The translations under genes and the position numbers were made by a program. Positions 7,206 through 21,442 of a DNA stretch of 21,458 nt are shown here, piece after piece (within the stretch, counting starts at the first letter, position 1; each line of letters starts with the position of its first letter). The notes beneath the pieces were generated by a model. The model was not told the DNA's origin. It did not search any database and saw nothing but the letters and a program-made list of their open reading frames with translations. Source of the stretch: an uncultured bacterium (GTDB lineage: Bacteria > CSSED10-310 > CAZUFC01). The stretch is from NCBI GenBank assembly GCA_964619725.1, contig CAZUFC010000131.1, positions 1 through 21,458 on the forward strand, written 5' to 3'.

Positions 7206-9380
<2,175 letters not shown>

Positions 9381-10855: not shown

Positions 10856-11449
10856 ATGGATGATTCACACGAAAAAGCCCTCATCCTGGAGTATTTCACG
10901 ATCGGATACAATCTCCTGGAAGCTCTGGCCTCGATTTTTTTTGGCCGTCTCGCAGGGTCCATCGCCCTGATCGGATTCGGATTGGACAGCATCGTCGAAA
11001 GCCTGTCGGGCTTCGTACTCGTCTGGCGCTTGAAAAAACACGGCAGAATCTCGCAAGAAGAAGAGGATCGTATTGAAAAAAAAGCTTCACGGTTCGTCGG
11101 CGCGACCTTCTTCATTCTCGGATTCTATGTACTCTTTGAATCAATCAAAAAACTCTGGTTAAAGGAAATTCCGGAACCTTCGATCCCGGGCATCGTTATC
11201 GCTTCAGTCTCCCTTACTGTGATGCCCATCCTGGCACGGGCCAAATACCGCCTGGGATAAAAATTGAACATGAAATCACTGATTGCCGACTCAAAGGAAA
11301 CTTTAGTTTGCTCCATACTCTCTTTTGCCCTGCTCCTGGGTTTGACTTTGAATTACTTTTTCGGGTTATGGGCTGCCGATCCCCTCGCAGGCCTTATCAT
11401 CGTCATTTTTTTATTCAAGGAAGGGCGCGAGTTACTGTTTGAAGAATAA
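10856..11449 (+). pseudogene. Short cation diffusion facilitator (CDF/TMEM163-like) transporter interrupted by an in-frame TAA at 11258-11260
   Basis: YNLLEA..GSIALIGFGLDSIVESLSG, PEPSIPGIVIA and, in the same frame after the stop, SLIADSKET..WAADPLAGLII. ORFs 10856-11260 and 11264-11449 are one reading frame. Confidence 0.8.
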
Positions 11450-15164: not shown

Positions 15165-15232
15165 TAAAATTCGGCAAAGAATTCGGAAGGTGAAATGAGG
15201 CAACAATTTCAAGTTCTGAAAGGAGAACAATT

Positions 15233-18200
15233 TTGAAGTATGGACAATTCATTTCATTGGCAATGACGATTATATATTTTTCAATGAGTTGGTTCGGAGT
15301 GAGTCATGCGGAGGAGAAGGGTATAGTTGAGATTCATCATATCGACGTGGGTTATGGTGATGCGGTATTGATCAAATCTCCGACGGGCGAATCGCTTCTG
15401 TATGACGCAGGCGGCCGTGGAAAGGGTTATACGGAGGTATTGTCATATTTGATAAGGCAGGGCATAGACGGAGCGAATGACGCTCTGGATTATATGGTAA
15501 TCAGTCATTATGAGCCGGAGCAGTACGGCGGCATTCAGGAAGTGATTTTCGGCCTGGACCGCGAGCCGGGCGACATGCATTATAACGACGATTTGAGGCC
15601 GGAGATAGCGATATATGATCGCGGTTGGTCCGGTTGCGGGATTGATTATGAGAATTATCTAAGGGCTGCCGGGGATATGCGTCAGACGCTTCAGCCCGGT
15701 GAGATATTCTCGATGGGACCTGTTACAGTTGAATGTGTAGCCGTGAACGGCATCATTGACGGAGTCGACTATCGACCGGGCGACAAGATTTCCGAGGAAT
15801 GCGGAGGTCCGGCCGGATACAGGGAGAATGATTTTTCGATAGCGCTTCTGGTTGAGTATGGCGAATTTCGTTATTTGGTCACCGGCGATCTGCCCATGGA
15901 ATTCGAGGCGGCTTTAGGCGATTATCTTGAGACTGTGGACGTTTATCGAGCCGGAGAACGAGGCGGTTCGTCATGTTCTTCACAGCATTTCATAGGTGAG
16001 ATAAATCCGTCGCTCTCCGTCATTTCATCGGGTCGTAACGCTTTCGGTAATCCTCAGACAGAGATATTAAGTCGTCTGGGCCAACAGGGAGAACTTTACC
16101 AGACGCATGTTGACGGAGATGTGATCATAAAAAGCAACAGCGTCGATTTCTGGAAGGAAGATATACCGGAGCCGGAGGGTAAGGTGAACGTTTATTTCGA
16201 TCATGACGTCGATCATGAATACATCATGTACGGCGGTATTCCTGCGACCTGGGAAGTCAACATCCAGGAAAAATTTCTGGAAAGAATAGAAGAGGCGGAC
16301 GAGAGCATCCTGATATGCATGACGCATCTGAATCGGTCTGATGCGACGCCGATATGCCAGGCGCTTGCGGATAAAGCAAATGCTATGGGAGGGATTGATA
16401 TCAGGGTAATGATAGATTACAGTATGGACAATGAAAATAATTTTAATTTAAATATGTTGAGAGACGCCGGCATACCGGTACAGAACAACGGAGAAAACGA
16501 ATATGACTATTCCATGCATATCAAAGGAGCATCTTTCGATGCCGGCGGCAGTTCAACAGAGGACGATCGGCTTTGGATAGCTTCACTTCACCGTTTTCGT
16601 ACCACTTATTACCATAAAATGGCAGCGATTTATCTTGATATTGGAAATGCGGAACTTGCGGCGGCATTCGTTGAAGAATTCGAAGTGATGTGGGATGACG
16701 ACGGACCCGACGGCCATGAGGATGAACCCTGCTGTTTAACCTGTAAAAAATTCGAGTATCCGTCTCGAATAGATTTTATAGTGGACGACAAGCCGTGGAC
16801 TTTTATCCCGGCGGCACGTCGAATATTAGATGAGGATTTCAATCGTCACAGGACATCAATGTGGGAGACGGTCAAACTGGCTGATATGACTTATCCCCGG
16901 TTCGGCAGTTTTGATGGCGGCTTTGGGTATTATTCTGATTATACTTGTCACGCCAATCACGAGTTTCTGATTATGACGATGCAATTGAGTTTTCTTTCGA
17001 AGAGCACATGCTATTTCCACTACTTTTCCCCGTTTGATCTTTACGAAGCATTGGAACGTAGAAGGTTGCAATCCGGTATAGACATCAAGGGCAAGCTTTA
17101 TAAATCTTCTTATGAATATCCTCCTCATTGGCCGGCCTGGCCTGAAGTCGTTCATCAGGGCGATATCAGCACGCATGAGCATTACGGGATATTCGACGGA
17201 CTTCATTACGATTCGGCCCCTGCTGTTGCATTCGGTTCGCGACGTTGGACGCGCCTGAGTGAGGAGCATCACGATGAAGTATCATTAATCAGTTGGGACC
17301 CGATGATAGTGAATCAATTCGTCCAGGAATTCGCTGCGCGTTATGCGGAAAATTACGGCGTTCTGGAAAATCCCAAGCCTGTAATCGATTCAATCATTCC
17401 CGGCTATGCATTCCCGGAAGAAACGACTCCAGTAATGATTTACGGTTCAAATTTCGATGTAAATGACCGTTTAGCCGTTAAGATAGGAGAACGTTTTTGC
17501 GGCGTGAACCTGGAAACTTCGAGGTCCTGGGCTATTGATGCCGTAATTCCCGAAGGTTTGGAACCCGGCGATTATACTGTTGAAGTAGTCAATTCCAGCG
17601 GGTGGCACGCTGAATACGCCATTCAGATTCTCGAAAACGGGGCTCAGACGCCGACTGCGCCTCCCACGCCCGAACAAACAACCACACCGACTCCGACCCA
17701 GGTTCCTCCGCCGACAGATACGCCCTTGCCGACTTTCACTCCAGCAAGCGTCATAGTAATTAATGAGATATATTTCGACGATCCTGGAGTGGACGATCAC
17801 AGTTTCGTCGAACTGTACGGCCCACCAGGCGCATCCCTTAACGGATACACGATCACGCCCGCCAACCAGGACGGTTGCGAAATATGCAACATCCGTCTCG
17901 ACGGTTACTCTATACCGCAGGACGGCTTCTTTGTTGCGAGCATGAGCGGATTGATCAACGCCGACCTGATCAACGACACATGTCTTCCGTTACTGCCGAA
18001 CGGACCCTGCGACAGCGTCTGGCTTCTTTACAATGATGTTATCGTGGATGCCGTCCAATATGGTCCCCCTGAAGAGTGTTCCCATTTTTACGGAGAGGGT
18101 CAGCCGGCTGCCGAACCCATCGGCTACAACAGCATTTCGCGTATTGCAGACGGATGGGACACGGACAACAACTACGACGATTTCTGCGAAAGTGAGTTGA

Positions 18201-20740
18201 CGGCCGGATTGCCCAATTTATGCGTACCGACTCCTTCTCCTGTCCCCACGCCGGCGTATAATATAGTCGTCAACGAAATTGAATATGATGATGAAGGAAC
18301 TGACGATCGAAACTATATCGAATTATACGGCCCGCCGGGCGCCGAGCTTCAGAATTATTCCGTTCAAATTTTAAATCAGGATTGCACAATATTGACCGCA
18401 ATAGTCCTTAACGGTCATGTAATCCCGAATGACGGATTTTTCGTAATTGGAATGCCGGCGCTCGGTGATGTCGTCGACCTTGTAGATTCAGAAAACCTGG
18501 AAAAACTCCAAAACGGCCCTTGTGATGCGGTAAGGTTGGTATACGGCGAAGAGGAAATAATAATCGACAGCGTACAATATGAACCGGACTTTTGCGAGGA
18601 AATGTGCGGTGAGGGATATCCCGCTCCGGAAGCTTCTGACATCTACAGCATAGGCCGATTCATAGACGGTTATGATACGAACGGCAACTCTTATGATTTC
18701 TGCGTTTGCTATACGAGTCCCGGTTCTGCTAACTCATGCATACCCGAATGGACGCCGCCGACTTTTACCCCGACGAACACGCCAGGCGAAACGCCGCCGG
18801 CGACTCCGACGGAGACGGTTCCTACGGTCACACCTTCGCCCACTGTTCCCCTGTTTTGCTTCCATCACGGGGATGTCGACAGTAATAGAATCATTACAGC
18901 GGGCGATGCGCAGACAGCTTATCGGATTGCCATGGAAATCCATTACCCAACGTATTATGAGGAGTGTGCCGCCGACTGCAACGGTGATATGGCCATTACA
19001 ACATCCGATGCTCAATCAATCTTTAACAGCGGGCTCGGGACAGATCAATGCACTGATAATATAAGTCAGGAAAATATTTTACCAGATGCATTGCTGAACA
19101 GTCCTTACTACGCACAATTACCTTTGCCGAACGACACAGAACCGGAAGAGATATATTATCGTTTCATTAGCGGAGTATTACCGCCTGGCTTGCAATTTAA
19201 ATCATGGGGAATAATAAAAGGCGCCCCTGTCAGTCTCGGCGCTTTTTCTTTTACTATAGCCGCTTACGATATCTCAGGACCTTTAGAGGAATGGATTTTC
19301 TCTATTGGCGTAAAAAACACACATAATGAACTTGCATCCATAATGGGCATCGTTGTTGATCGAAAAACAGAGTTACCAGTTGAAAATGCAGAAGTTACTG
19401 TTTTCGGATACGATGAAATAGAAACAAGCGACGAAAACGGGATTTATTCACTGGATGTGCCGACGGGTGAAATACTTATTCAGATAAAGAAGGAGGGCTA
19501 CGTCCCAATTAATCTGAAAATACAAACTTTTCCCGAAGAGCAGAACGCTCATTATCAGAATATACCTCGAGCAGAATTACAACCCTTAAATGAACCAATT
19601 CATGTAGGCCCTGAAGGGGGAATATTCACTTTCGAGGATAATTCGGATAGAACTTACGAACTTCGAATACCGTCAGGCGCTTTGGATTCAGAAACCGACA
19701 TTTCAATTACTCCTCTTAATTTGATGCCGTCTGTATCTGATCGAATGATTACGAATCCTGTACATATTTATCCTCCGAATCTTCAATTCAATGAGCCTGT
19801 CCAGTTGAAAGCGCCTTTAGGAATTAACATGGATTGCAATACCGAGATAGCGCTTTCTGAATTTCATCAGGATTTTATTGGTTGGCGGCGCAGCATCAAA
19901 AAAGCGGTCGTTGATGAAAATGGTGAAGATGCAATAATTGAGTTTACTGAATTCCCATTTTTTAATGAGCTTTCCAAGGACAAAGCTAAGGAAATGCTTT
20001 CAACGACATTGGGACTGGATTTCGGAGATAACGTATCCTGGAATGAACAGAATGAGCAACCGGATGCCCAGATTTGTGACGCTTCGGTCGGCGGATATAT
20101 AATTAATATATCATCCGTAAATGAGAACGAACAACAGGGGTCGCCAATGATTTCAAATATAGATAATTGTCAAGGGGCAGCTCCTGTAGTAGATACCTGG
20201 CAAGAATGCAAGAAAGATACGGTTCACTGGGAAGTGGGCGGCAGTGTAAGCGGTGAAGCCGGTTGGACAATAGCCGGCCTGGTTCAAGCAAAAGTCGGTT
20301 TTGAAATAAGCGGTTCCTATGGACAGGATTCAGAACATGAAGTTTGTTCATCTTCGCAGCATACCATTCCCCCTGGTTATACATCGAAAATTATAAAGCG
20401 ATGGGATGTTTTAACGAAAACTGTGGAAGGAGAGGTTTATCAGAGACAATGCTATTGGGGAGTAATTCGAACGGTTTTGATAGATGATTTCAGTATCGTG
20501 ACTAAGCAACACAATAACTATTATAAAGCCATCGACACTAAATGCACTCCAACACCGTCTCCATCGCCGACATTTACACCATCCCCGACAATGACTTCTA
20601 CTCCAACCGCAACGTTAACGCCGACGTCTACTATTTCTCCAACGCCGACAAAAACTCAATCCATTACTCCATCACCTTCTTTAACGCCTGTTACCCCACT
20701 TCCAACCATAGAGCCGGAACCATCCATTACCATTTACTAA
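15233..20740 (+). CDS. Large secreted multidomain dockerin-bearing protein (ComEC-type MBL fold, tandem PLD-like, IPT/TIG, 2x lamin-tail, dockerin, Ig-like, carboxypeptidase-regulatory-like, ZU5-like, aerolysin-like segment, Pro/Thr linkers)
   Basis: aaggag RBS + TTG; signal peptide ending SHA; IDVGYGDAVLIKSP..LYDAG..ENDFSIALLVEYGEF..TGD; HIKGASFD; PVIDSIIP..IYGSNF; two INE(I)..FVELYGPPG-type domains; GDVDSNRIITAGDAQ..AADCNGDMAITTSDAQ; SGVLPPGL; VGPEGG..LRIPSGAL. Confidence 0.85.
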   Translation: MKYGQFISLAMTIIYFSMSWFGVSHAEEKGIVEIHHIDVGYGDAVLIKSPTGESLLYDAGGRGKGYTEVLSYLIRQGIDGANDALDYMVISHYEPEQYGGIQEVIFGLDREPGDMHYNDDLRPEIAIYDRGWSGCGIDYENYLRAAGDMRQTLQPGEIFSMGPVTVECVAVNGIIDGVDYRPGDKISEECGGPAGYRENDFSIALLVEYGEFRYLVTGDLPMEFEAALGDYLETVDVYRAGERGGSSCSSQHFIGEINPSLSVISSGRNAFGNPQTEILSRLGQQGELYQTHVDGDVIIKSNSVDFWKEDIPEPEGKVNVYFDHDVDHEYIMYGGIPATWEVNIQEKFLERIEEADESILICMTHLNRSDATPICQALADKANAMGGIDIRVMIDYSMDNENNFNLNMLRDAGIPVQNNGENEYDYSMHIKGASFDAGGSSTEDDRLWIASLHRFRTTYYHKMAAIYLDIGNAELAAAFVEEFEVMWDDDGPDGHEDEPCCLTCKKFEYPSRIDFIVDDKPWTFIPAARRILDEDFNRHRTSMWETVKLADMTYPRFGSFDGGFGYYSDYTCHANHEFLIMTMQLSFLSKSTCYFHYFSPFDLYEALERRRLQSGIDIKGKLYKSSYEYPPHWPAWPEVVHQGDISTHEHYGIFDGLHYDSAPAVAFGSRRWTRLSEEHHDEVSLISWDPMIVNQFVQEFAARYAENYGVLENPKPVIDSIIPGYAFPEETTPVMIYGSNFDVNDRLAVKIGERFCGVNLETSRSWAIDAVIPEGLEPGDYTVEVVNSSGWHAEYAIQILENGAQTPTAPPTPEQTTTPTPTQVPPPTDTPLPTFTPASVIVINEIYFDDPGVDDHSFVELYGPPGASLNGYTITPANQDGCEICNIRLDGYSIPQDGFFVASMSGLINADLINDTCLPLLPNGPCDSVWLLYNDVIVDAVQYGPPEECSHFYGEGQPAAEPIGYNSISRIADGWDTDNNYDDFCESELTAGLPNLCVPTPSPVPTPAYNIVVNEIEYDDEGTDDRNYIELYGPPGAELQNYSVQILNQDCTILTAIVLNGHVIPNDGFFVIGMPALGDVVDLVDSENLEKLQNGPCDAVRLVYGEEEIIIDSVQYEPDFCEEMCGEGYPAPEASDIYSIGRFIDGYDTNGNSYDFCVCYTSPGSANSCIPEWTPPTFTPTNTPGETPPATPTETVPTVTPSPTVPLFCFHHGDVDSNRIITAGDAQTAYRIAMEIHYPTYYEECAADCNGDMAITTSDAQSIFNSGLGTDQCTDNISQENILPDALLNSPYYAQLPLPNDTEPEEIYYRFISGVLPPGLQFKSWGIIKGAPVSLGAFSFTIAAYDISGPLEEWIFSIGVKNTHNELASIMGIVVDRKTELPVENAEVTVFGYDEIETSDENGIYSLDVPTGEILIQIKKEGYVPINLKIQTFPEEQNAHYQNIPRAELQPLNEPIHVGPEGGIFTFEDNSDRTYELRIPSGALDSETDISITPLNLMPSVSDRMITNPVHIYPPNLQFNEPVQLKAPLGINMDCNTEIALSEFHQDFIGWRRSIKKAVVDENGEDAIIEFTEFPFFNELSKDKAKEMLSTTLGLDFGDNVSWNEQNEQPDAQICDASVGGYIINISSVNENEQQGSPMISNIDNCQGAAPVVDTWQECKKDTVHWEVGGSVSGEAGWTIAGLVQAKVGFEISGSYGQDSEHEVCSSSQHTIPPGYTSKIIKRWDVLTKTVEGEVYQRQCYWGVIRTVLIDDFSIVTKQHNNYYKAIDTKCTPTPSPSPTFTPSPTMTSTPTATLTPTSTISPTPTKTQSITPSPSLTPVTPLPTIEPEPSITIY

Positions 20741-20809
20741 AAATGAAAGGCAAAGAAATGAATTCTTCATCTAAAAACAGATACTTTAGAGCATCACAGG
20801 GAGGAAACG

Positions 20810-21442
20810 ATGCAAATAAATAGAAGTTTAACGATTTTCTCAATCTTACTTGCGTTTTCAATTTTTGGAGCGGTTTATCCTGTGGCGGCAGAGGTTGAAA
20901 TCGATCAGATTTGGCTGACGGATGCTGCGGGCGGTTCAGGCTCATCATTGCAGGTTGAATTAAGAATGGAAAACGACATCAATTCGGTTGACGCCTTCAC
21001 GATTTATGTTTCCTACGACCCGGACATGTTGAGTTTCGAATCCTGCGAAACGGGCGACATCCAACCTTCAGGCGGGTGGACCTATTTCGGCTGTCATAAT
21101 CCTGATCGACCGGGCAATTTGATTAAAATACTGGGCATGCATTTTTCAGATGAGGTCCCCTCCGGCAGCTACGGCAAATTAGCCGTGCTGAATTTTACCG
21201 TGACGTGTGATTCCTGCGTTAACGGGGATGCGAGCATGTTCAGAATTCAAGCTTTATGGGACGACGTCCAAGGATTTGAAGCTGCGGACGGCAGGTTCGT
21301 TTTCACCGGCGGTGATCCTACCCCAACACCGACGATTCCGCCCATACCCAGCGTGAACGCCTCCGGAATATTTGCGATACTGAGTTTGTTCACGCTCTTG
21401 TTCCTGATGCGCTTCAGTAGAAGAAAGAGCTTACGTCCTTAA
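20810..21442 (+). CDS. Single-cohesin anchoring protein with IPTL-CTERM-like C-terminal sorting/TM signal
   Basis: ggagg RBS; signal peptide; LQVELRMEN..VDAFTIYVSYDPDMLSF..GKLAVLNFTV cohesin pattern; PTPTPT linker; IPSVNASG + hydrophobic helix + RFSRRK. Confidence 0.8.
   Translation: MQINRSLTIFSILLAFSIFGAVYPVAAEVEIDQIWLTDAAGGSGSSLQVELRMENDINSVDAFTIYVSYDPDMLSFESCETGDIQPSGGWTYFGCHNPDRPGNLIKILGMHFSDEVPSGSYGKLAVLNFTVTCDSCVNGDASMFRIQALWDDVQGFEAADGRFVFTGGDPTPTPTIPPIPSVNASGIFAILSLFTLLFLMRFSRRKSLRP

Follow-up and report, generated by a model that had tools for sequence, protein, structure and literature searches.

A probable non-cellulosomal cohesin–dockerin cargo/anchor pair with unusual cargo in an uncultured bacterium of the phylum CSSED10-310

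At the end of a 21,458-nucleotide stretch of DNA from an uncultured bacterium of the phylum CSSED10-310 (contig CAZUFC010000131.1, hereafter "the window"), two adjacent genes encode a secreted, dockerin-bearing multidomain protein of 1835 amino acids (P0001; positions 15233..20740, + strand) and a 210-amino-acid protein with a single cohesin (P0002; 20810..21442, +). We consider the two a probable non-cellulosomal cargo/anchor pair, in which P0002 is the anchor and P0001 an unusual cargo of a binding or pore type that is probably non-catalytic; this reading is supported because protein fold, family membership, and a recurrent gene order all point to it. More specifically, we assign a probability of about 0.55 to the pair being a minimal specialised unit of a lineage-wide, non-cellulose cohesin–dockerin display system whose cargo has a probably non-catalytic N-terminal arm. 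Our inferences concern Ca-dependent binding of P0001 to P0002, a location on the surface of what is a diderm cell, the identity of the ligand, and possible pore formation.

Both open reading frames (ORFs) were found where a first-pass annotation of the window had placed them, and the gap between them (20741..20809) is exactly the 69 nt that it gave. P0001 starts with TTG, 7 nt downstream of an AGGAG at 15221-15225, while P0002 starts with ATG, preceded at 5 nt by a GGAGG (20800-20804) that lies in the spacer; the spacer contains no terminator-like site. Since 395 nt separate P0001 from the divergent gene upstream, P0001 is presumably the first gene of its transcription unit. By eye, Sec-type signal peptides can be recognised at both N-termini, in P0001 over aa 1-26 (15233..15310, +; cleavage after SHA, SHA|EE) and in P0002 over aa 1-27 (VAA|E). 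Because P0002 has its own signal peptide and ribosome-binding site, the two proteins are, judging from the sequence, separate products today, with gene fission of a dockerin–cohesin chain considered as their origin. A protein identical to P0001 over all 1835 aa is present in a public representative library (P0003), and the stretch itself turned up solely in DNA sequencing runs labelled microbial mat metagenome, all from one study, one of which is possibly its source.

That the small protein is a cohesin, as had been proposed from the letters, is borne out by its predicted fold. The module (20891..21325, +; aa 28-172) was assigned with an AlphaFold2 (AF2) model, Foldseek, and a subfamily profile (A1). 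The model has a pLDDT of 94.6 and a pTM of 0.87, and it shows the nine-stranded beta-sandwich (jelly-roll) that defines the cohesin fold. Every top match listed by Foldseek was a cohesin (best E value 1.3e-10, TM-scores of 0.73-0.81), the archaeal non-cellulosomal cohesin 2xdh among them. At the level of the family, all 24 matches of profile A1 in the Protein Data Bank (PDB) are solved cohesins (best 7.7e-8), and P0002 finds paralogues that pass the Pfam Cohesin cut-off with tblastn E values down to 1e-30. An NCBIfam scan of P0002 and its tail (the tail at E ≤ 10) gave no match.

The C-terminal sorting signal claimed for the same protein is present as well (21344..21439, +): IPSVNASG is followed by a hydrophobic helix (aa 187-200) and the basic stretch RFSRRKSLR (aa 201-209), which is the layout of a tripartite sorting signal. 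We built a profile from the tails of 16 cohesin/dockerin proteins, which matched 108 of the 22,392 ORFs of the genome at E ≤ 1e-3, many of these ORFs being thousands of residues long. The pattern that emerges genome-wide, and of which window positions 21344-21439 are one example, consists of [IV]P[AS]-x4-G, a transmembrane (TM) helix, and K/R, usually with a Pro/Thr linker before it. The tail of P0002 appears to be of a type that serves the organism as its general signal for envelope proteins. We take this tail to resemble IPTL-CTERM; the curated model of that family (TIGR04174 / PF18203) matched neither the tail of P0002 nor any cohesin protein, and the TIGR04174 matches above cut-off are confined to two other ORFs in the genome. 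As to processing enzymes, the genome yielded one exosortase-family match (PF09721, 35.5 bits, C134:13003-13455), and a search of it for a sortase found none.

On the side of the cargo, the twin Ca-loop dockerin lies where it had been annotated (18857..19051, +; aa 1209-1273), and both of its loops align intact with those of the subfamily (D1214/D1216/N1218/D1225 and D1248/N1250/D1252/D1259; alignment A2). The segment thus has the duplicated EF-hand-like Ca loops, each followed by a helix, of a type I dockerin. It matches at least 20 paralogous dockerins by tblastn (E 1e-6 to 1e-10), and when profile A2, which includes the P0001 dockerin, was run against the PDB, 20 of 20 matches were dockerin-bearing chains (best 1.9e-4). 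Both subfamilies carry conserved cysteines, six in the dockerin (A2, window 18839-19087) and a CxxC in the cohesin (A1, 20891-21325). In P0001, the cysteine that follows the second loop is gone (QSIF in place of QCIF), as is one of a C-x-C pair; because these two were lost together, the alignment hints that they form a disulfide in the rest of the subfamily.

The third line of evidence is the gene order. A census of the genome (G000) with subfamily profiles, over the same 22,392 ORFs, identified 25 dockerin ORFs and 32 cohesin ORFs with 54 modules. Twelve of the latter are cohesin-only, and 11 of these 12 immediately follow a same-strand dockerin ORF; the sorting tail reaches the profile threshold in 11 of the 12, and all twelve are anchor candidates. 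The dockerin-then-cohesin order is far above chance, since a rough estimate, based on about 25 dockerin genes in a total of several thousand, gives an expectation of far less than one case. At least four cargo types occur in this arrangement (beta-helix, LamG, CARDB with CarboxypepD_reg, and that of P0001). The two-gene modules are, however, paralogous, so that 11 of 12 overstates the number of independent events, and this paralogy counts in favour of an account that we consider unlikely but that survives best among the alternatives: the adjacency would be a relic of module duplication, with the dockerin of P0001 binding scaffoldins or cargo-borne cohesins elsewhere and P0002 holding other dockerin proteins. 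Partners would be plentiful, given that the genome has 54 cohesin modules and 25 dockerins, all of one subfamily, and in cellulosomes cross-binding within a subfamily is usual. Yet the order has been kept in 11 of 12 cohesin-only genes over four cargo types, and both modules are family outliers, as expected under joint divergence: the P0001 dockerin is the second most divergent of 22 (best identity 45%, against a median best of 68.5%), and the P0002 cohesin is the sixth most divergent of 42 (38% against 55%). As far as sequence can tell, this divergence of both modules fits a private pair.

With respect to cargo, we scanned 18 of the 25 dockerin ORFs (P0001 and 17 others). A beta-helix is found in 11 of the 17 other proteins, whereas no glycoside hydrolase (GH) was detected in any of the 18; one of the 17 has a CBM_4_9 domain, and P0001 matched no Pfam GH or carbohydrate-binding module (CBM) family at E ≤ 1. 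The first-pass proposal of a system outside polysaccharide degradation is therefore upheld for the 18 proteins. A cellulosome was considered too and was ruled out, as the proteins scanned include no GH cargo. Elsewhere in the genome, eight ORFs have two to five cohesins and no dockerin, and are thus multi-cohesin scaffoldins, while the window has one cohesin. We also observed giant proteins, mostly right-handed beta-helix/NosD-like and up to a 12,092-aa ORF on C34, that end in a dockerin–cohesin cassette; they sit on contigs C2, C7, C8, C15, C18, C19, C20, C25, C34, C64, C97, C154, and C182 (loci L013-L028). Dockerin–cohesin cassettes in one chain could link molecules head to tail. At one further locus (G000:C12:40012-40775, - strand; L029), a 116-aa dockerin ORF overlaps a cohesin ORF that is read in another frame, and a TAG lies within the cohesin match; this is probably a broken dockerin–cohesin gene or an assembly error.

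Beyond this genome, which is alone in its family, the nearest kin are 13 genomes that share the phylum only. The P0002-type cohesin subfamily occurs in 10 of the 14 phylum genomes, with 6-55 matches each, and many relatives have C-terminal dockerins. We examined loci of two relatives, picked because matches to the lamin-tail domain (LTD) or dockerin and to cohesins shared one contig. In G013, a CBM-LTDx2-dockerin gene is followed by a cohesin-dockerin adaptor and then by a C25 peptidase; in G006, a scaffoldin with five subfamily cohesin matches precedes a CBM-LTD-dockerin gene. The resemblance of G013 and G006 to the window goes no further than a generic layout in which an LTD-dockerin gene adjoins a cohesin gene. 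A pattern scan of species-representative genomes with P0001 returned no relative.

The N-terminal arm of P0001 opens with a ComEC-type metallo-beta-lactamase (MBL) fold (15311..16162, +; aa 27-310), which matches PDB entry 9ic4 (E 4e-14) and NCBIfam ComEC_Rec2 (6.4e-15), the latter falling far short of the equivalog cut-off, as the match is confined to the C-terminal domain. Its metal motifs are degenerate, with HYEPEQ for H-x-[HD]-x-D-H, ERG (in ERGG) for HHG/HHA, and GNP for GHP/GFP, whereas the motif histidines are kept in 8 of 8 aligned homologues (A4) and in 9ic4 (with HHA once and GFP once). A two-lobed PLD-like domain follows (16175..17377, +; aa 315-715), for which Pfam PLDc_2 scores above its cut-off in two scans (36.4 and 42.4 bits). 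Lobe 1 retains HIKGASFD as an intact HxKx4D and reads ASLH at the GSxN position; lobe 2 reads HEHYGIFD, with H for K, and GSRR. Instead of two HxKx4D motifs, each with a GSxN, P0001 therefore has one full HKD motif only. Its sole near-length PLD relative among 5.8 billion clusters, a PLD+TIG protein that is 38% identical (P0044), shows the same motif losses, while in a more distant ORF (L053; 656 aa, a secreted LTD-PLD protein with a type IX secretion system (T9SS) tail) both HxKx4D...GSxN motifs are canonical. A PDB sequence search with the PLD region returned only MitoPLD, at a non-significant E of 1.4. The arm ends with an IPT/TIG domain (17378..17602, +; aa 716-790; Pfam TIG 36.2 bits, cut-off 20.9) and two lamin-tail-like domains (17747..18742, +; aa 839-1000 and 1008-1170) that form an internal repeat with paralogues on C50, C10, and C16. 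Pfam LTD (PF00932) scores 30.3 bits here, in two stretches and with a cut-off of 34.3, and reaches 54.5 bits on the G013 repeats, which are 51-53% identical to those of P0001.

Because of these losses in the MBL and PLD motifs, a role in DNA or phospholipid processing is doubtful. Of the cargo that the first-pass annotation had described, the ComEC-type MBL, PLD, and LTD folds stand, but a processing enzyme is not supported: the MBL histidines are lost, and the lobe-2 lysine and both GSxN asparagines of the PLD domain are replaced. As an active ComEC-like nuclease, P0001 was ruled out by the lost MBL metal motifs. The arm would rather be a binding module derived from secreted phosphodiesterases and is probably non-catalytic. 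There is a small chance that the cargo displayed by the pair is nevertheless a catalytically active enzyme that processes DNA or phospholipids and serves to scavenge extracellular DNA (eDNA) or to attack membranes by hydrolysis. In a three-sequence alignment, neither of the two PLD histidines nor the lysine of lobe 1 varies; there are a canonical secreted LTD-PLD relative (the L053 ORF) and secreted ComEC-type MBL relatives with intact motifs; and, according to excerpts of a published report (PMC6085458), bacterial LTDs are found together with nucleases that act outside the cell, ExeM being an example. What speaks against such an enzyme are the readings HYEPEQ, ERG, and GNP where the homologues keep histidines, and the missing lobe-2 lysine and GSxN asparagines, which are gone in P0044 likewise.

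The part of P0001 that follows the dockerin begins with a He_PIG-like Ig domain (aa 1291-1350) and a CarboxypepD_reg domain (aa 1369-1431), which together span 19103..19525 (+). In Pfam they score 22.5 bits (cut-off 24, which cassette homologues pass) and 34.1 bits (cut-off 32.3). An AF2 model of aa 1440-1775 (pLDDT 75.4, 25-row alignment) then shows two domains, namely a ZU5 fold (19583..19981, +; aa 1451-1583) and an aerolysin/ETX-MTX2-type beta-pore-former fold (20087..20548, +; aa 1619-1772), and the protein ends in a Pro/Thr-rich tail of 63 aa without a membrane anchor (20549..20737, +). The modelled ZU5 domain aligns with the ankyrin ZU5 domain 3f59 at a Z score of 13.3 (root-mean-square deviation, rmsd, 2.6 over 120 residues); it also resembles the autoproteolytic FIIND and GAIN domains (Z 7-9). 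At the end of the ZU5 fold (window 19901-19999, aa 1557-1589, alignment A3), the three cassette homologues read F-x-S-[ST] (FEST, FQST, FHSS) and P0001 reads FPFF; the homologues might cleave themselves at this site, and P0001 might not.

For the model of the last domain, the closest match is 6lhz (Z 8.2, rmsd 3.8 over 135 residues), followed by parasporin-2, LSL, Dln1, aerolysin, and epsilon toxin (Z 7.6-6.6). In a wide structure search of 48,161 chains, independent of Foldseek, beta-pore-formers made up 15 of the 16 listed rows that cover this domain (model residues 180-333), the remaining one being the botulinum haemagglutinin HA-70. The insertion hairpin of the aerolysin family is amphipathic and flanked by Ser/Thr-rich stretches, and the candidate hairpin of P0001 (about aa 1666-1697) shows hydrophobic/polar alternation around a central turn, with Ser/Thr flanks, in 4 of 4 aligned sequences. 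It is the consistency of the match list together with the conserved hairpin pattern that carries the aerolysin-type assignment, and the aerolysin-like segment noted earlier is thereby supported at the level of structure, with moderate strength. An ESM Atlas search with aa 1440-1775 was uninformative, as its clusters (at 0.90-0.91) were either unnamed or of CarboxypepD_reg. At E ≤ 1e-3, this region has 33 matching proteins in a set of 1.84 billion representatives, P0001 itself being one; apart from it, only three (P0004-P0006) match over the full span. P0004 and P0005 have a signal peptide, He_PIG, and CarboxypepD_reg, and then a ZU5-plus-X region; in P0006, CarboxypepD_reg and ZU5 were seen, with no He_PIG match. 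The anchors differ, P0004 having a T9SS tail and P0005 thrombospondin repeats with IPTL-CTERM at 18.7 bits (cut-off 20.8). A cohesin or dockerin sought in P0004 was not substantiated (hhalign probability 11.6% and 0.8%, respectively; Pfam Cohesin E 0.1). Because the cassette stands alone with other anchors in P0004 and P0005, P0001 appears to be two secreted units fused on either side of the dockerin.

Putting these modules together, we propose the following mechanism for the cargo/anchor pair. P0002 would be exported by Sec and then held in the envelope by its tripartite C-terminal sorting signal, with its single type-I-like cohesin borne by a short Pro/Thr stalk. P0001, exported by Sec as well and without an anchor of its own, would plug its internal dockerin into this cohesin in a Ca-dependent manner and then hang off the cell with two arms. 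The N-terminal arm (MBL, PLD-like, TIG, and two LTDs) would most likely bind phosphodiester-bearing ligands, such as eDNA or membrane/envelope polymers. The C-terminal arm, made up of He_PIG, CarboxypepD_reg, the ZU5 fold, and the aerolysin-type fold, would be a portable cassette of four domains, the last of which, with the shape of a pore-former and an amphipathic hairpin, could insert into a neighbouring membrane. It is tempting to speculate further, though we regard this as improbable, that the pair is a cell-tethered contact weapon or prey-capture device, in which the aerolysin-type module perforates the touching cell while the degenerate phosphodiesterase folds and LTDs grip its envelope or released DNA, and that the whole system is an undescribed surface-assembly apparatus of a nearly unstudied phylum.

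Several observations weigh against the pair as a specialised display unit, or against parts of it. Pfam Cohesin (PF00963) scores P0002 just under its cut-off in the protein scan (23.6 versus 24.1 bits; 24.2 bits in the six-frame genome scan), and Pfam Dockerin_1 (PF00404) is likewise sub-threshold on P0001 (18.5 versus 22.9 bits; 23.0 bits in six frames). The P0001 dockerin lacks two of the six cysteines conserved in the genome's subfamily and deviates at loop positions 10-11, which in type I dockerins set the specificity. P0001 is also atypical in its architecture: in 20 of the 25 dockerin ORFs, a cohesin comes right after the dockerin in the same chain, a cassette to which P0001 is one of three complete exceptions. 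In 40 other genomes, we found neither a full-length relative of P0001 nor an orthologue of the pair; the gene order described by the first-pass annotation recurs 11 times within this genome. The window is one entire contig (C131) of a 9.17-Mb bin of 344 contigs that is 90.9% complete with an estimated contamination of 6.5%, and it ends 16 nt past P0002, the remainder of the operon lying beyond. As to the cargo, metal binding could persist in the MBL fold, whose motif has E, E, and Q at the positions of H, D, and H, the aerolysin-type match is middling (Z ≤ 8.2), its hairpin has a pLDDT of 56-59 with only four sequences in the domain alignment, and no Pfam family, aerolysin and ETX_MTX2 included, matched this region at E ≤ 1. 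Finally, 6 Omp85 and 7 secretin matches mark the host as a diderm, and a Sec signal and an inner-membrane-type tail alone do not put either protein outside the outer membrane.

In this last respect, we noted an 845-aa secretin elsewhere in the genome (G000:C12:72043-74580; L059:2044-4581, +) with TPR, Secretin_N, and Secretin (121 bits) matches. It ends in a cohesin-like stretch (aa 728-809) that Pfam Cohesin scores at 21.8 bits in the protein and at 25.6 bits in the six-frame scan, and on which the genome's own cohesin-subfamily profile gave no match. Dockerin proteins could dock to such a protein at the outer membrane.

Weakest among the alternatives, and in our view very unlikely, is that the dockerin-like segment is a mere Ca-binding spacer in a released P0001, with P0002 an unrelated envelope protein, for although the sub-threshold Pfam score, the internal rather than C-terminal position, the two lost cysteines, and an anchorless P0001 with a Pro/Thr tail at its end would agree with this, conservation extends to both Ca loops and to the helix pattern, at least 20 paralogous dockerins match it, profile A2 finds dockerin-bearing PDB chains only, and the gene order recurs.

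Elsewhere in the window, a 724-aa protein encoded at 7206-9380 (-) contains a collagen triple-helix repeat of considerable length (Pfam Collagen, 167.6 bits), and its gene explains a rise in GC content to 64.6% at 8001-9000. At 10856-11260 (+), a 134-aa ORF covers only positions 7-125 of the 198-position Cation_efflux profile and may be a gene fragment.

Cohesin–dockerin pairing has been studied mostly as the glue of the cellulosome, and its other uses have been proposed from genomes and rarely specified. Here, the gene order pairs anchor with cargo in 11 of 12 cohesin-only genes, which yields testable partner predictions in a phylum known from metagenome bins only. Two phosphodiesterase folds that have lost most of their catalytic residues are candidate pseudoenzyme binding modules, and the aerolysin-type cassette, rare as it is (three other full-length relatives among 1.84 billion representatives), would in P0001 be tethered rather than free. 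If both binding and pore formation were true, a cohesin–dockerin pair would here assemble a tethered pore-former, and protein engineering would in addition gain a compact orthogonal cohesin–dockerin pair. Should the reading as a contact weapon be correct, cohesin–dockerin assembly would extend from the display of enzymes to the display of pore-formers, by an apparatus of giant beta-helix cassette proteins, multi-cohesin anchors, an own sorting tail, and possibly a cohesin-bearing secretin.

Single-cohesin anchors that tether cargo, such as OlpA and OlpC, are known in cellulosomes. With the clostridial type I pairs (4uyp/4uyq ScaC-ScaB, 6kgc CaCohA2-Doc0917, 1ohz) and the archaeal 2xdh, P0002 shares the cohesin fold (TM-scores of 0.73-0.81), and a dockerin with two 22-residue Ca-binding repeats is common to clostridial type I and P0001. 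Sequence identity to these systems is 15-19%; in contrast to them, the host is a diderm and the cargo has no GH or CBM; unlike clostridial type I, the modules here have extra conserved cysteines, a CxxC in the cohesin and up to six in the dockerin. The MBL fold of P0001 (aa 27-310) is homologous to the C-terminal MBL nuclease domain of ComEC (9ic4, 30bt, 9vc6; E 4e-14), and secreted, T9SS-tailed MBL proteins (P0036-P0039) are 33-36% identical to it by BLASTP; unlike ComEC, it is secreted, comes without the ComEC channel domain, and has its metal-binding histidines replaced. Two reports describe bacterial LTDs that accompany hydrolases of the MBL, EEP, and calcineurin types or form part of the nuclease ExeM (PMC6085458; PMC8289736). 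The L053 ORF, ExeM as described in the first of these, and P0001 thus have in common an LTD and a phosphodiesterase fold on an exported protein, but the L053 ORF has two canonical HxKx4D...GSxN motifs, whereas P0001 and P0044 lack the lobe-2 lysine and both asparagines. With the aerolysin family (6lhz from Bombina, parasporin-2 2ztb, LSL 1w3a, Dln1 4zno, epsilon toxin 1uyj, aerolysin 5jzh), the modelled domain of P0001 shares an elongated three-stranded sheet and a candidate amphipathic insertion hairpin with Ser/Thr flanks. Rather than being a small soluble toxin with a lectin-type receptor domain, the P0001 module ends a putatively tethered 1835-aa protein behind a ZU5 domain, and it resembles that family in structure, without a sequence-level family match.

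That cohesins and dockerins serve outside cellulosomes is as such already an established idea, reportedly surveyed by Peer et al. in 2009. A full-text literature search for CSSED10-310 together with dockerin returned no report, and the main text of the genome announcement for CSSED10-310 does not mention cohesins or dockerins (PMC8248873). For dockerin together with aerolysin, the matches listed comprised one marsh-sediment community study, judging by title and abstract. Excerpts of three further reports describe a "planctosome" proposed for freshwater Planctomycetes, with an LTD protein included (PMC6461901), a cellulosome-like complex in Ca. Stygibacter of the Cloacimonadota (PMC8542988), and dockerin/cohesin proteins in ANME archaea (PMC9012536). 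As far as these excerpts go, the three systems and the one described here share secreted cohesin/dockerin proteins without cellulases, inferred from genomes, as well as anchors with one or several cohesins and a cargo of LTDs, peptidases, or binding domains. What sets the present system apart is, first, its anchor, which is the [IV]P[AS]x4G-TM-K/R tail and not SLH, sortase, or the C-terminal domain (CTD) of T9SS. Unlike in the known non-cellulosomal systems, moreover, most of the cargo consists of giant beta-helix proteins with a terminal dockerin–cohesin cassette, and the cargo of P0001 joins degenerate MBL and PLD folds to a predicted aerolysin-type fold.

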